Below, piece after piece: positions 10,139 through 28,938 of a stretch of 28,938 nucleotides of DNA. The notes beneath the pieces were generated by a model that saw nothing but the letters and a program-made list of their open reading frames with translations, ran no database searches and was not told the DNA's origin. Source of the DNA: Escherichia coli (GTDB lineage Bacteria; Pseudomonadota; Gammaproteobacteria; Enterobacterales; Enterobacteriaceae); assembly GCF_003334315.1 (NCBI RefSeq), contig NZ_QOWR01000059.1, one strand, 5' to 3'. The number at the start of each line of letters is the position of its first letter. Position 1 is the first letter of the stretch. The position numbers were made by a program, and so were the translations under genes.

Positions 10139-11806
10139 TTATTGCAAACGTTCTAATAAACGAGCCAGTTTTTTATTGCCGCCGGCGACTGGCGACCATT
10201 GGTAATGCACAACCGGTTTGCTGGCGCTTTGTAGCTCCAGCGCAAAGCTGCGTAATCCGATGTTAATCACGGCGACGTTTTCCAGTAATGACGGTGTGTG
10301 TTGCTGAGTGGCAGGCGAAAGCGGACGAATCAGTGCCGCCGCCAGCAAGGTGGCTTCCGGCAGCGAACTCACTACCGCGATCCCTGCATCTTCCAGCGTG
10401 GCGATTTGCTGCGAGCGGCATTGCGGGTCACGTTCAGTGCCTGTCACCGTGGCAATGGCATACAGTGGTTGATTGTCTGAACGCGCAGCACAGGCTTTTT
10501 GCCAGGCGCTTACCAGCGAGGCGGCAGGATCGGCGGTCGCACCGAAGCCAATCACGACATCAAGCAGCAGCACACGCACTTGCGGTTTAGCGCCGAGATC
10601 GGTAATTAACTGGTTGCGTAAGGTTGGGTCGATCATCGGATGGGGACGCCCGACGGTGTAGAAATCATCGCCGAGGTCAATAATCTGGTGGCCATCGGCG
10701 TCCAGCATCATGCCATGTTGATGGGTATCGTCGGCTTCCACGCCAAGGTGCCCGGCAAGTAATCCCGCCGCTTCGGCGGCCAGCGTACCGCCGGTATACA
10801 AACCGCAAATAAATCCGCTGCTGACAGGTGCTATTGCGTTACGTCGCGCCGTGACGCGTGAAAGCAGGCAAGCCAGGCGTGCGGCCTCATCCAGCGAGGA
10901 GGCAAACCAGACATTCTCGTCGCGGGCCACCGCCGGGGTATAACCTAAAAACAGCGCCACCGTCGGTTTGCCGGTTGCTTTCATGGCATTAACAATTTTC
11001 AGACGCACAGCTTCGGCAGGCGGTTTTGAAACAAATGCCAGCACTTCGCTTTTCTCGTCTGCACTGAGCATTTCCAGCGCCGTCAGCGCACTGATGCCGC
11101 CCACTTCACGGCTGAGGTCGCGCCCGCCAAGGCCAATCGCGTGAGTAATTCCCTCCCCTGCCAGCGCAATCTGCGAACACAGTTCCTGAATCCCGGTACC
11201 GGAAGCGCCAATGACGCCAATATTGCCTTCCGGCATCACGTTAGCAAAAGCCAGCGGCGTGCCGGCAATCATCGACGTACCGCAGTCCGGCCCCATCACC
11301 AGCAAGCCTTTTTCCCGCGCGCGGCTTTTAAGTTGGATTTCATCTTCCAGCGTGACGTTATCGGAGAACATCATCACGTTGAGGTTGCGATCCAGCGCCT
11401 GGTTCGCCAGCTCCGCCGCATACTCGCCAGCCACTGAAATCAGCGCCAGACTGGCGTCGGGTAATTTCTGACAGGCACTGTCCCAGCGACGCACCTGCGT
11501 CAAGGCCTGGCTGCTGCCTGACCCCTGCGCCAGTTGTTTTAGCGCCTCTTCAAGCTGCTGCATAATCGCCTACGCGATCCCCGCATCCGCCGCTTCGCTA
11601 CGAATTGTCACGCAAATATCGTTCGACGTGGCGTTATTAAAATCGTCATGCCAGAAACCTGTGGTATCTAATAACGCTTTATTGGCGGGCGTACCCATCA
11701 TTACGGAAACATCATCAACATTTTCTGATTCGCTGAGTTTTCGTGAAATAATCATTAAACTGACCGAATCCTGAAAACACCCTTTTTTAATAAAGGCGTG
11801 GATCAT
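10139..11806 (-). pseudogene. fdrA: fdrA (succinyl-CoA-synthetase-like protein; reported AllF) interrupted by an in-frame TAG at codon 79
   Basis: ORFs 11570..11806 (78 aa, ...AADAGIA) and 10139..11563 (474 aa, MQQLEE...) are in the same frame. Minus strand reads GCG-TAG-GCG-ATT-ATG, so 78 + stop + 2 + 474 = 555 codons, the length I recall for K-12 FdrA. Confidence 0.75.
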
Positions 11807-16619: not shown

Positions 16620-17927
16620 TTATTCGATGCGTTCCCACGGAATAAGGTTATCCATAAGAACAGCCAGTAAAATCCCGACCAATAAGCCGTTACTGAGCAG
16701 AGGACGAAGCGTTAATGGAAGGTCTTGCAGATACACAGGCGGTAATGCCATTAAAAATATGCCGACAAATAACGGCAATGCGAGTCGATAAATATTGCGA
16801 GCGGTAAACGTTATTTGCTGGCTAAACACCAGCGCGGAAAAGAGTAAAGGCAGATAAGAAACCAGCATGACCGCACTACTCACGGGTAAAGGGATACTGC
16901 AAAACAGTCGCGTGAGTGCAGGAACCAGCGCCACCAGCAGGCAAATAACGCTGCCATAAATAAACGAACGCCGCGTGTAATCGCCAGTCTGGGTTAATAA
17001 ACCAATGGATGAAACAAACGGTGAAAATGGAATTACCGCCAGCGGTACGGTTATCAGCGTCATAAATCCGGTCGCCACAAAGCTACGACGATAACGCGTA
17101 TTCCCTGCGCCCTGCTGCGGATAAAAAACATCCGTGCCCCGAATCGCACCGTAGGTATTGCTGATATTTACCAGACCTGTAATCACCGCCGTCAGAATAA
17201 TTCCCGGCGACAAAGCACCGCCACTGCCGAGCGGGAACCACTGCCAGTGCAACTCACCGGAGAGCGAATGCGAAGAAGGAAAGCAAAAGTACCACAACAA
17301 CCAGCCGGTTATCGTACCGACCAGCAGGCCATAACGGGCAAAACGTTGCGGCAGAAAGATAATCATCGCCAGTACCAGGCACATCACCGCCACCGAGAGC
17401 GCGAACGGTGGTAACTGAATTTTAAAATTTGGGTCGGCTATGCCAAACGGCAGCCCGAGCATACCTTTGAAAAAGATAGTGGTCAGCTGCGCGCCCAGCA
17501 TCAACATAAACAAGACCATCACCGACGGCGTAAATAACCGTGCCAGGCGATGGCCTAATCCGCTAAAACCAATCAACATCGTCAGCACGCCGGAGAGTGC
17601 AATCCCCACCGCCAGACTGGTAGCGATATCGTTGATCGGTGTCCCGCGCGATGCTTCGCCAAGGGTGATAGTAAGGATGGTTCCCCACCACAGGCCACCC
17701 GGCCCTTCCATAATAGCGCGACGATGACCGCAGAACGCCTGAGCGAAGCAGGCCAGTGCGGTAGCAAGAAAAGCATATTGCGTGAGCGTAAGCAGGCTAC
17801 TTTGCGGCAACTGAAAAGCAGAAAGTAGCGTAGGAGGAACCACAACCGTGTTGCAAAAAATAAAGAAAAACCACTGAAATCCTGATAACAGGCTTTCGCG
17901 GCTGACTGCAAAATTGAACATAAACAC
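16620..17927 (-). CDS. ybbY: Putative purine/xanthine permease (NCS2 family)
   Basis: 435-aa polytopic membrane ORF MFMFNFAVSRESLLSGFQWFFFIFCNTVVVPP...; alternative start 2 codons downstream at 17921. Confidence 0.85.
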   Translation of the reverse strand: MFMFNFAVSRESLLSGFQWFFFIFCNTVVVPPTLLSAFQLPQSSLLTLTQYAFLATALACFAQAFCGHRRAIMEGPGGLWWGTILTITLGEASRGTPINDIATSLAVGIALSGVLTMLIGFSGLGHRLARLFTPSVMVLFMLMLGAQLTTIFFKGMLGLPFGIADPNFKIQLPPFALSVAVMCLVLAMIIFLPQRFARYGLLVGTITGWLLWYFCFPSSHSLSGELHWQWFPLGSGGALSPGIILTAVITGLVNISNTYGAIRGTDVFYPQQGAGNTRYRRSFVATGFMTLITVPLAVIPFSPFVSSIGLLTQTGDYTRRSFIYGSVICLLVALVPALTRLFCSIPLPVSSAVMLVSYLPLLFSALVFSQQITFTARNIYRLALPLFVGIFLMALPPVYLQDLPLTLRPLLSNGLLVGILLAVLMDNLIPWERIE

Positions 17928-17977: not shown

Positions 17978-19339
17978 TTACTGCTGATGTTTAAGGATAA
18001 ATTGACCTTTCGGCGCAACAGGGAAGCCCTGTTCAATGTCGTAAATCACATCACCACGTAAGATGGTTTTCGTGATACGCGCGCCAATGGTACGGCCAAC
18101 ATACGGGCTGACTTTGTGGCGATATTCCAGATCGTCATTGGTAAGAACATAGCTGCTATTCGGCTGAATGAAGACGAAGTCGGCATCTTTTCCTGGGGCG
18201 ATACGGCCTTTTTGCTGCAGACCGAAAATATCTGCTGCGTTAGTCGCCATTAATTTGCCGAACATTGGCAGAGACATACCGCGTTTCTGTACCGCTTCAT
18301 CGAACATCACGTCCATGCAGCTTTGCAGACCGGCGATACCGCCCCATGCTTTCATGATGTTACCGGCTTTCATTTCCGGCGGGCATGGAGAGTGGTCGGA
18401 AACCAGGCAGTCGATTTCACCGTTAAACAGTTTTTCCCACATGCCTTTCTGGTTTTCCAGATCGCGGATCGGCGGTGAACACTTCGCCAGAGTACCGATT
18501 TCTTCGAACTGATCGGTATCCAGTACAAAGTAATGCGGGCAGGATTCACAAGTAACGTCCTGACCTTCCTGACGTGCACGAGTCACTTCCTCAACACCTT
18601 CCGGGCTGCTGACGTGGCAAACGTGCAGACGGCAACCAGCAACTTTCGCCAGATACAGTACGCGGCGAATTGCTTCCACTTCGGTAAATACCGGACGCGA
18701 AGCCACATAGTCATGAGCGGTTACGCGACCTTCACGCTTCGCTTCTTCGCCCAGTTCGTCACAAATCAGCGCGTTTTCGCAGTGCACCAGCACCGGCTGA
18801 CCCAGTTCGCCCAGCTTCTGCGCACCTTTGAAGAACTGCCAGTCGTTTACATCACGGAAGTCGTTGTCGATACCGCGATCGCCACAGGTCGCAACGAAGC
18901 ATTTGAAGCCGACAACGCCCACTTCATCCAGCTCATGCAGACGGTCGATGTTGTAAGACACCAGGCCACCGAGTTGTGCCGCATCAATAGTCAGCTTGCC
19001 TTTAGCGGCATCGAACTTCAGTTCAATTGAAGCGCGGTCAACCGTTGCAGGCAGCTGGTTGAGCGGCATTTCGATCATGGTGGTGATACCACCTTTTGCC
19101 GCTGCGCGAGTACCGGTTTCATAACCTTCCCAGTGGCTACGACCCGGTTCAGAAATATGGGTGTGCGCATCAACCATGCCCGGCGAAACCACCAGACCAG
19201 ACGCATCCATAACTTCTTTTGCATCGCCCAGATCCTGACCGATAGCAGCAATTTTTCCGCCTTTAACGGCGATATCTACAACGCGAGCTTCGTTTTCTAA
19301 AATAACGGTGCCGTTTTTAATGATTAAATCAAAAGACAT
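17978..19339 (-). CDS. allB: Allantoinase (cyclic amidohydrolase)
   Basis: 453-aa [80 protein letters not shown]... with metal-binding HxH motif. Confidence 0.95.
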
Positions 19340-19398
19340 AACAAACTCCTTGTAAAATACAGATTGGTTTTTAACTCAATGTTCAATATCGGGATTAA

Positions 19399-20853
19399 TT
19401 AACCTATGGTTTTTTGCTCTCCTGTTTTTTCTGCTGTTGTACGTTTCTTTAATAAGGCGTAGGCCGCAAAGGCGACGATGACGCCGACAAACCATGAAAC
19501 ACGCGATAACGGTTCCATAAAGTGAATAAACTTACCGCCAAGAGATAAAATAACGGCCACCAGAGTTACTGAAAACGCAGTGAGGTTAAAACCGTTATCG
19601 TAATATTTATAATCGCCAGGTGCGGTATACAGTTCATCAAGATTAATTTGTCCGCGCATCACCACAAAATAATGCGCCATCATGACACCAATTACCGGAC
19701 CAAGCATTCCGCCGATAATATCGAGGAAAAGATAAATGCTGTCCTGATTTTCCATTAATTTTCACGGGCAGATCAGCAAGCTGATAATACTGGCAATCAG
19801 TACGCCGTTTTTATAGGTCAGTTTTGTCGGTGCAATGGCGGCAATCTGATAACCGGCTGGAATAATATTACCGGTCGCGTTAGTGGAGATAGTTGTCATC
19901 AGAATAACCAGTACCGCAAAGAACGAGGCGAACAGGCTGTCCCAACGCTGAACAATATCCAGCACGTTCCAGGTATCAGCGCCGTAGTGAATACTGGCTC
20001 CGGCAATAATACATACCCCGGCGACCGCAAACAGAATATAGGCCACAACTAAACCCAGCGTTTGCCCCAGCGCCTGCTCACGAAACGAGTGGGCGTTTTG
20101 CGTAAAGTCGGATGCGCTCACCGCCGGTGCCGCCCAGACCGCAACTACCGCGTTAATCACCACCAGGAACAGGAAGCCACCGTTTTCTGCTTTCTGAATA
20201 CCGCTCGGAATGTAGTCAAAGATTGGACCGATCCCGATCAGTGAAATCGCCCAAATCGCCATACCGCCGAAAACGATATAGATGCACGGGTTAAGAATGG
20301 CAGTGAATTTATTTAAAACTTTGCCACCGCCAAAACCTATACCAACGTTGACCAGCCAGAAGATTAAGAAAGTAATTAAGCCCGGTAGAGAAAGGCCTAA
20401 CAGAGTGAAATCACCACCGAGAGTTAAAAATCCCGGCCAGATTTTGCCAATCAGAATCAAGCAGGCCAGTGACCCCGCGTAACATTGCAAACCAAACCAC
20501 ATGATGGCGGCAATTCCGCCCCTTAATAATCCGGGAAACAGTGCACCACGTACACCGTAAGAAGCACGCAGGATCATGGCAAAAGGCACACCGTATTTAC
20601 TGCCCGCAGCACCGTTTAATACCATTACCGCGGCAATGAAAAAGGCGCTGAGGATAATTGCCAGCATAATACTAAAGGTAGACAAGCCGAGAATAAAAAA
20701 GCCGCCGACCATCACATAATTGGGAACGTTATGAACCGAACCCATCCATAAGGTAAAATAGTTAAATGTTTTCCAGGTCCGCTGGCTTTGCGTTTTCGGC
20801 AATAGATCTTCGCTATAGCCGCGTTGCTGGAATAGTTTTCTCTGATGTTCCAT
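19399..20853 (-). pseudogene. ybbW: Allantoin permease (NCS1 family) interrupted by an in-frame TGA at codon 364
   Basis: ORFs 19762..20853 (363 aa ...LLICP) and 19399..19755 (118 aa MENQDS...) share a frame. Minus strand reads ...TGA-AAA-TTA-ATG-GAA, so 363 + stop + 2 + 118 = 484 codons, the length I recall for K-12 YbbW/AllP. Confidence 0.75.
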
Positions 20854-28861: not shown

Positions 28862-28938
28862 TGATCTTACCCAGCAATAGTGGACACGCGGCTAAGTGAG
28901 TAAACTCTCAGTCAGAGGTGACTCACATGACAAAAACA
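28862..28938 (+). mobile_element. insE: IS3 left end (IRL and start of orfA), continues beyond window end
   Basis: TGATCTTACCCAGCAATAGTGGACACGCGGCTAAGTGAGTAAACTCTCAGTCAGAGGTGACTCACATGACAAAAACA matches my memory of the IS3 left terminus and the OrfA start (ATG 28927, MTKT...). Confidence 0.85.

Follow-up and report, generated by a model that had tools for sequence, protein, structure and literature searches.

A premature opal codon splits the allantoin transporter gene allW in an Escherichia coli lineage

Introduction

The allantoin transporter gene allW (ybbW/allP) of Escherichia coli is a single reading frame of 484 codons in K-12, whereas in the 28,938-nucleotide stretch of E. coli DNA analyzed here, hereafter the window, the corresponding locus is read as two open reading frames. 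Does this split reflect a genuine nonsense allele, an error of sequencing, or a gene that keeps working across an internal UGA codon, and what would it mean for the uptake of allantoin?

The gene is part of the gcl operon, the structure of which has been described by Rodionova et al., who also gave YbbW its current name, AllW (PMC10163214). According to the same study, AllW is needed for allantoin transport, and the operon is strongly induced during allantoin use. In addition, the allantoinase AllB acts as a stabilizing partner of AllW, which is unstable unless bound to AllB (PMC10163214).

The account that we hold with considerable confidence is that the window carries a genuine, lineage-specific nonsense allele of allW, from which no transport is expected, which may be slightly leaky, and for which loss of the pathway is the simplest picture.

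The split gene and its identity

The list of open reading frames contains a 363-residue frame (19762-20853, minus strand), opening at the allW start codon ATG at 20853, and a 118-residue frame (19399-19755, minus strand) in the same register. Around the junction, the minus strand reads CTG ATC TGC CCG TGA AAA TTA ATG GAA AAT CAG, in which codon 363 (CCG) occupies 19767-19765, followed by TGA (19764-19762), AAA (19761-19759) and TTA (19758-19756). A preliminary description of this DNA had reported an in-frame opal codon at allW codon 364 within 19756-19767, a range that coincides exactly with codons 363-366. The same description had taken the two frames as parts of one gene of 484 codons; indeed, 363 codons, the stop, a lysine, a leucine and the remaining 118 codons add up to 484, which agrees with the length of K-12 AllW/YbbW (1455 nt including the natural stop). 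The coordinates of all features are listed in Table 1.

Table 1. Positions of the allW features and of the private changes of the lineage in the window
Feature	Position	Strand	Remarks
allW (ybbW/allP), allantoin transporter gene, now a pseudogene/split gene	19399..20853	-	484 codons plus natural stop
Premature opal codon TGA, codon 364, from TGG (Trp)	19762..19764	-	G>A at gene position 1092
N-terminal fragment, 363 aa	19765..20853	-	TM1-TM9 of the NCS1 fold, from hydropathy and Mhp1 alignment
C-terminal in-frame ORF, 118 aa plus stop	19399..19755	-	TM10-TM12; opens at ATG codon 367
allB (allantoinase), next gene of the operon	17978..19339	-	ORF intact; no SNP compared to relatives
ylbE A202V	9525		private derived SNP
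fdrA (allF) Q79*, CAG>TAG	11570..11572 (SNP 11572)	-	private nonsense
fdrA/allD intergenic site	11905		private derived SNP
allD Y330H	13110		private derived SNP
allW W364*	19762		private derived SNP
allW V206I, G616A, GTC>ATC	20238	-	second private derived SNP in allW; conservative
glxR synonymous change	21322		private derived SNP

Both pieces match NCBIfam NF047713, a model of 471 positions that represents the curated allantoin-transporter equivalog with a cut-off of 800 bits. The 363-residue piece covers positions 2-363 with 695.2 bits and the 118-residue piece positions 367-470 with 176.4 bits, so that neither encoded product attains the score of at least 800 bits over the whole model that marks a full-length AllW. 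By contrast, a repaired protein of 484 residues, in which the stop is replaced by Trp and Ile206 is kept, scores 896.4 bits, above the cut-off; the rest of the gene is therefore not degraded.

Moreover, the genes gcl-hyi-glxR-allW-allB-ybbY-glxK follow each other in the window in the order of the operon, and the window is colinear with the annotated relatives and with K-12, without indels. K-12 AllW/YbbW (b0511, WP_000401100.1, annotated as allantoin transporter) lies at the same locus and in the same operon context, and its gene is identical to that of the window at 1453 of 1455 bases. On account of the synteny, the near-identity and the score of the repaired protein, we assign the locus as an orthologue of allW. 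The pattern of two split frames is not due to chance, since both pieces match the allantoin-transporter model and the DNA differs from that of K-12 at only 2 of 1455 bases.

Ancestral state and rarity of the allele

Base-by-base alignment with the MG1655 gene (b0511), the comparison suggested at the outset, located the two differences as G616A, which gives V206I, and G1092A, which gives W364*. Compared to K-12, where codon 364 is TGG, the gene of the window has TGA and its product ends at 363 residues, in addition to carrying V206I. The proposal that a Trp codon TGG had changed to TGA is thus borne out by MG1655, as well as by the three closest complete genomes, LCP22S3_I2, NT1F31 and PI12, all of which have TGG at this codon. 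As in a nonsense pseudogene, a sense codon is found both in the close relatives and in the outgroup.

Of 5,426 complete E. coli genomes searched by megablast with the 1455-nt gene, 5,337 contain allW, and the best uninterrupted matches all have 2676 bits, corresponding to two mismatches. The exact 61-mer centered on the TGA is absent from all 5,426 complete genomes, a count that is blind to a TGA in genomes whose haplotype diverges on both sides of the codon (the 61-mer has no match in about 3,400 genomes). With one mismatch, the 61-mer occurs in 1,920 of the 5,426 genomes; the TGG itself was read in K-12 and the three closest relatives. Since K-12 and its closest relatives have TGG and no complete genome searched has the exact TGA 61-mer, TGA at codon 364 is the derived state.

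Position of the stop in the NCS1 fold

The hydantoin permease Mhp1, the structural archetype of the NCS1 family, is homologous to AllW: K-12 AllW aligns with it (2JLN/4D1A) over residues 19-438 with an E value of about 1e-24. In this alignment, Trp364 falls on the Trp of a conserved ‘PW’ motif that both proteins share, at Mhp1 residue ~353 and at the end of TM9; beyond it, a strongly conserved block represents TM10, and the alignment continues from there. In Mhp1, the TM9/TM10 loop comprises N360-F362, and Leu363 belongs to TM10, the helix that acts in the LeuT-type fold as extracellular thin gate (PMC3812048). Hydropathy analysis revealed three hydrophobic segments downstream of the stop (residues 372-399, 420-447 and 449-470). 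The preliminary description had expected the last transmembrane helices to be lost, and the position of Trp364 immediately before TM10 together with these three segments agrees with that expectation. Unlike the intact Mhp1, the 363-residue product lacks TM10-TM12 and hence does not contain the complete 12-TM NCS1/LeuT fold with its TM10 gate.

Because the gate helix and the last two helices are missing, we infer that the 363-residue AllW would lack activity and probably stability. Judged from the sequence, the most likely outcome is a transporter that is null or severely reduced, and allantoin uptake in the lineage is expected to be defective or, at best, strongly lowered. Strong Rho-dependent polarity on the downstream allB gene is not predicted, and this candidate effect was set aside: by a crude measure, the C/G ratio over the 423 nt past the stop ranges from 0.46 to 1.31, and no C-rich, G-poor tract was found there.

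Other private changes of the lineage

Beyond allW, positions 205-28938 of the window are colinear with LCP22S3_I2 without indels and differ from it at eight positions. With K-12 as outgroup, seven of the eight differences are derived and private to the lineage of the window (Table 1). One of them is a second nonsense change, Q79* in fdrA (10139-11806, minus strand), which splits this gene into frames of 78 and 474 residues. None of the 5,372 complete E. coli genomes with this segment has the exact 61-mer around it, and one contig of the Logan collection, which holds assemblies of public sequencing runs, carries both the fdrA Q79* codon and the allW stop.

The ratio of nonsynonymous to synonymous changes among the private coding SNPs is 5:1, compared to 49:160 for the older differences between K-12 and the window in this region (Fisher p = 0.004), a pattern that marks the private changes as recent or unselected. 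All seven are transitions, and six of the seven are G:C>A:T. Set against the regional baseline, the excess of transitions lacks significance (7:0 versus 164:58, p = 0.20), as does the clustering of all seven SNPs within the allantoin cluster when taken alone (~0.08, as a simple proportion), and no consistent sequence context was seen around the private SNPs. A mutator or mutagenesis signature was therefore not adopted, given the transition-only spectrum at p = 0.20 and the lack of a consistent context, and is retained as a hint only. The pattern suggests either relaxed selection on anaerobic allantoin catabolism in the clone or a mutator/mutagenic burst, which the window alone cannot separate.

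A broader interpretation would tie these changes together. Two private nonsense mutations in different operons (allW and fdrA/allF) and three private missense mutations lie within 12 kb, as might be left by a coordinated and possibly adaptive loss of anaerobic allantoin catabolism combined with a readthrough-leaky allW, or by a past episode of mutator activity or alkylation mutagenesis. In the case of coordinated loss, the UGA-A context could leave residual AllW that varies with temperature or cAMP, through tRNA-Trp readthrough that restores the native residue; in the other case, the spectrum of six in seven G:C>A:T changes and the 5:1 ratio may be a record of the past episode. We regard this broader interpretation as unlikely.

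Alternative explanations

Might the TGA be an error of sequencing or assembly in the contig, behind which the true gene is intact with TGG? Such an error would be in keeping with the absence of the allele from the 5,426 complete genomes, with the resemblance of the window to a short-read contig that has IS1 and IS3 at its ends, and with an excess of C>T/G>A changes like that of deamination-type artefacts. However, the change is a substitution rather than an error of homopolymer length, and the exact 363-residue product, including Ile206, was found on five Logan contigs, as was the exact 78-residue FdrA fragment. The contigs of runs SRR10357290, ERR271230 and SRR3824135, whose accessions belong to different series, agree with the window at 100% of 19,128, 13,570 and 7,248 bases, respectively, and contain each private SNP within their span. 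Since these three independent run assemblies match the window including the TGA base, a base-call error in a single assembly is very unlikely, and this explanation was dropped. The allele is thus reproducible in independent sequence data, as a nonsense pseudogene should be, and is already present in public read archives, though unannotated. A single distributed strain might nevertheless be the source of all these runs. The 363-residue AllW and 78-residue FdrA fragments, on five Logan contigs each, have no NCBI protein accession, which would fit the handling of both fragments as pseudogenes by the NCBI pipeline.

A genuine UGA codon may still be read as sense. In K-12 reporters, UGA readthrough amounts to about 2% at 37 °C and 4% at 25 °C, with Trp-tRNA-Trp competing with RF2 (PMC10570021), and according to PMC5289835, which cites Engelberg-Kulka 1981, UGA is especially misread by tRNA-Trp when the +4 base is A. 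The stop of allW stands in a UGA-A context, and tRNA-Trp would put back the original Trp; for these two reasons, the allele may be slightly leaky and yield a small amount of essentially wild-type AllW (with Ile206). The RF2 of K-12 is unusually weak (Ala246 versus Thr246), and readthrough in the present non-K-12 strain may therefore be, and probably is, lower than in K-12. A leaky hypomorph, in which readthrough of a few percent supplies useful AllW and the phenotype is mild, would profit from the wild-type nature of the inserted residue and from the strong induction of the gcl operon on allantoin, but AllW is unstable without bound AllB (PMC10163214), and the fdrA nonsense change and the missense changes suggest a pathway that is not under selection. 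All in all, we consider useful leakiness improbable. Programmed recoding, either as selenocysteine or by regulated readthrough, would leave the gene fully functional and could draw on the same leakiness of UGA-A, with insertion of the ancestral Trp. Against it, the UGA is not conserved among orthologues: those inspected, including the relatives, have TGG, Mhp1 has Trp, and the TGA 61-mer occurs in no complete genome, so that nothing has evolved around this stop. A permissive Rfam scan of 19300-20100 returned only sub-threshold eukaryotic snoRNA noise and no SECIS or other recoding element, and when the 60 nt that follow the UGA were folded, no adjacent hairpin formed, the only stem being a weak one (-6.7 kcal/mol) 36 nt downstream. 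A further, unrelated nonsense codon (the TAG of fdrA) and the neutral-looking ratio of changes point to decay. On the Rfam scan, the local folding and the TGG of the orthologues examined, recoding was rejected, and we regard it as scarcely credible. Finally, the TM1-9 and TM10-12 fragments might be made separately, by reinitiation at ATG-367, and assemble into a working transporter, as split LacY fragments are known to do. The ATG lies in frame 6 nt past the stop, opens the 118-residue frame that spans TM10-12, and gene callers predict both pieces; yet no favorable duplex with the anti-Shine-Dalgarno sequence was found upstream of it, this arrangement belongs to a single rare clone, W364, K365 and L366 are all lost by the cut at a conserved motif, and no NCS1 precedent was found in the present work. 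Reinitiation driven by a Shine-Dalgarno sequence was accordingly rejected, and the split gene is kept as a rival of extremely low probability.

We thus return to a genuine nonsense allele as the preferred explanation. A single G:C-to-A:T transition turned the TGG codon of Trp364 into an opal TGA, and translation normally stops with residue 363, where TM9 ends. The product, devoid of TM10 with its function as extracellular thin gate and of TM11 and TM12, would be incapable of transport and probably degraded, leaving the allantoin uptake of the clone defective or at best severely reduced. In the UGA-A context, low readthrough by tRNA-Trp may produce a small percentage of essentially wild-type protein, the I206 variant. 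The simplest picture would be that relaxed selection is letting the clone lose anaerobic allantoin utilization, to which a mutator or mutagenic episode may have contributed. The data show the mutation itself, its direction, rarity and reproducibility, and its place in the fold; loss of function, readthrough and decay of the pathway are inferred from them.

Other disrupted alleles and implications

Inactivation of allW is not unusual in E. coli. In other complete genomes, the gene is interrupted by IS1 (near nt 1338), IS5 (near nt 1071) or IS903B, as found in J6, ETEC1720 and CFS3273, respectively, where the remains are annotated as pseudogene fragments. These are independent natural inactivations, and the gene has thus been inactivated more than once. 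They differ from the allele of the window in that an IS insertion allows no rescue by readthrough, whereas the present change is a point nonsense mutation. Fragments of IS-disrupted allW are often annotated as ‘cytosine permease’ pseudogenes.

Altogether, allW W364* is no novel feature of biology but an ordinary nonsense allele, specific to the strain, in the gene of a non-essential transporter; outside annotation and strain phenotype its importance is slight. For annotation, an allW pseudogene fits the locus better than two ‘cytosine permease’ or NCS1 frames. For the phenotype, the prediction is that the strain can draw little or no nitrogen from external allantoin. Given the nonsense change in fdrA and the neutral-looking pattern of SNPs, the clone provides a small example of pathway decay. 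In addition, ybbW serves as an E. coli-specific target for PCR and RPA, and a point mutation of this kind would leave detection unaffected.

Flanking regions of the window

Both ends of the window consist of IS sequence. Positions 1-204 are part of IS1, whose terminal repeat ...ATCAGTAAGTTGGCAGCATCACC ends at position 204 and directly adjoins the 5' end of sfmA/fimA, a gene reduced to about 70 nt (205-275). Compared to LCP22S3_I2, about 1.9 kb are gone at this end, including the N-terminus of the usher, the chaperone gene and most of sfmA, and in relatives this sfm fimbrial operon has lost other stretches next to IS1. At the other end, positions 28863-28938 are the first 76 nt of the left end of IS3, located just past the ylbG remnant. 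This insertion is shared by three close relatives and absent from K-12, the alignment with which ends at 28862. As an IS element stands at each end, the window has the appearance of a whole short-read contig between two IS copies.

Within the allantoin cluster, ybbY (about 16620-17921) has 12 synonymous differences between K-12 and the lineage of the window, whereas glxK, allB, allW, glxR, hyi, allR and allS, which flank it, have no differences from K-12 other than the private ones. By this distribution, ybbY looks like a small recombination patch.
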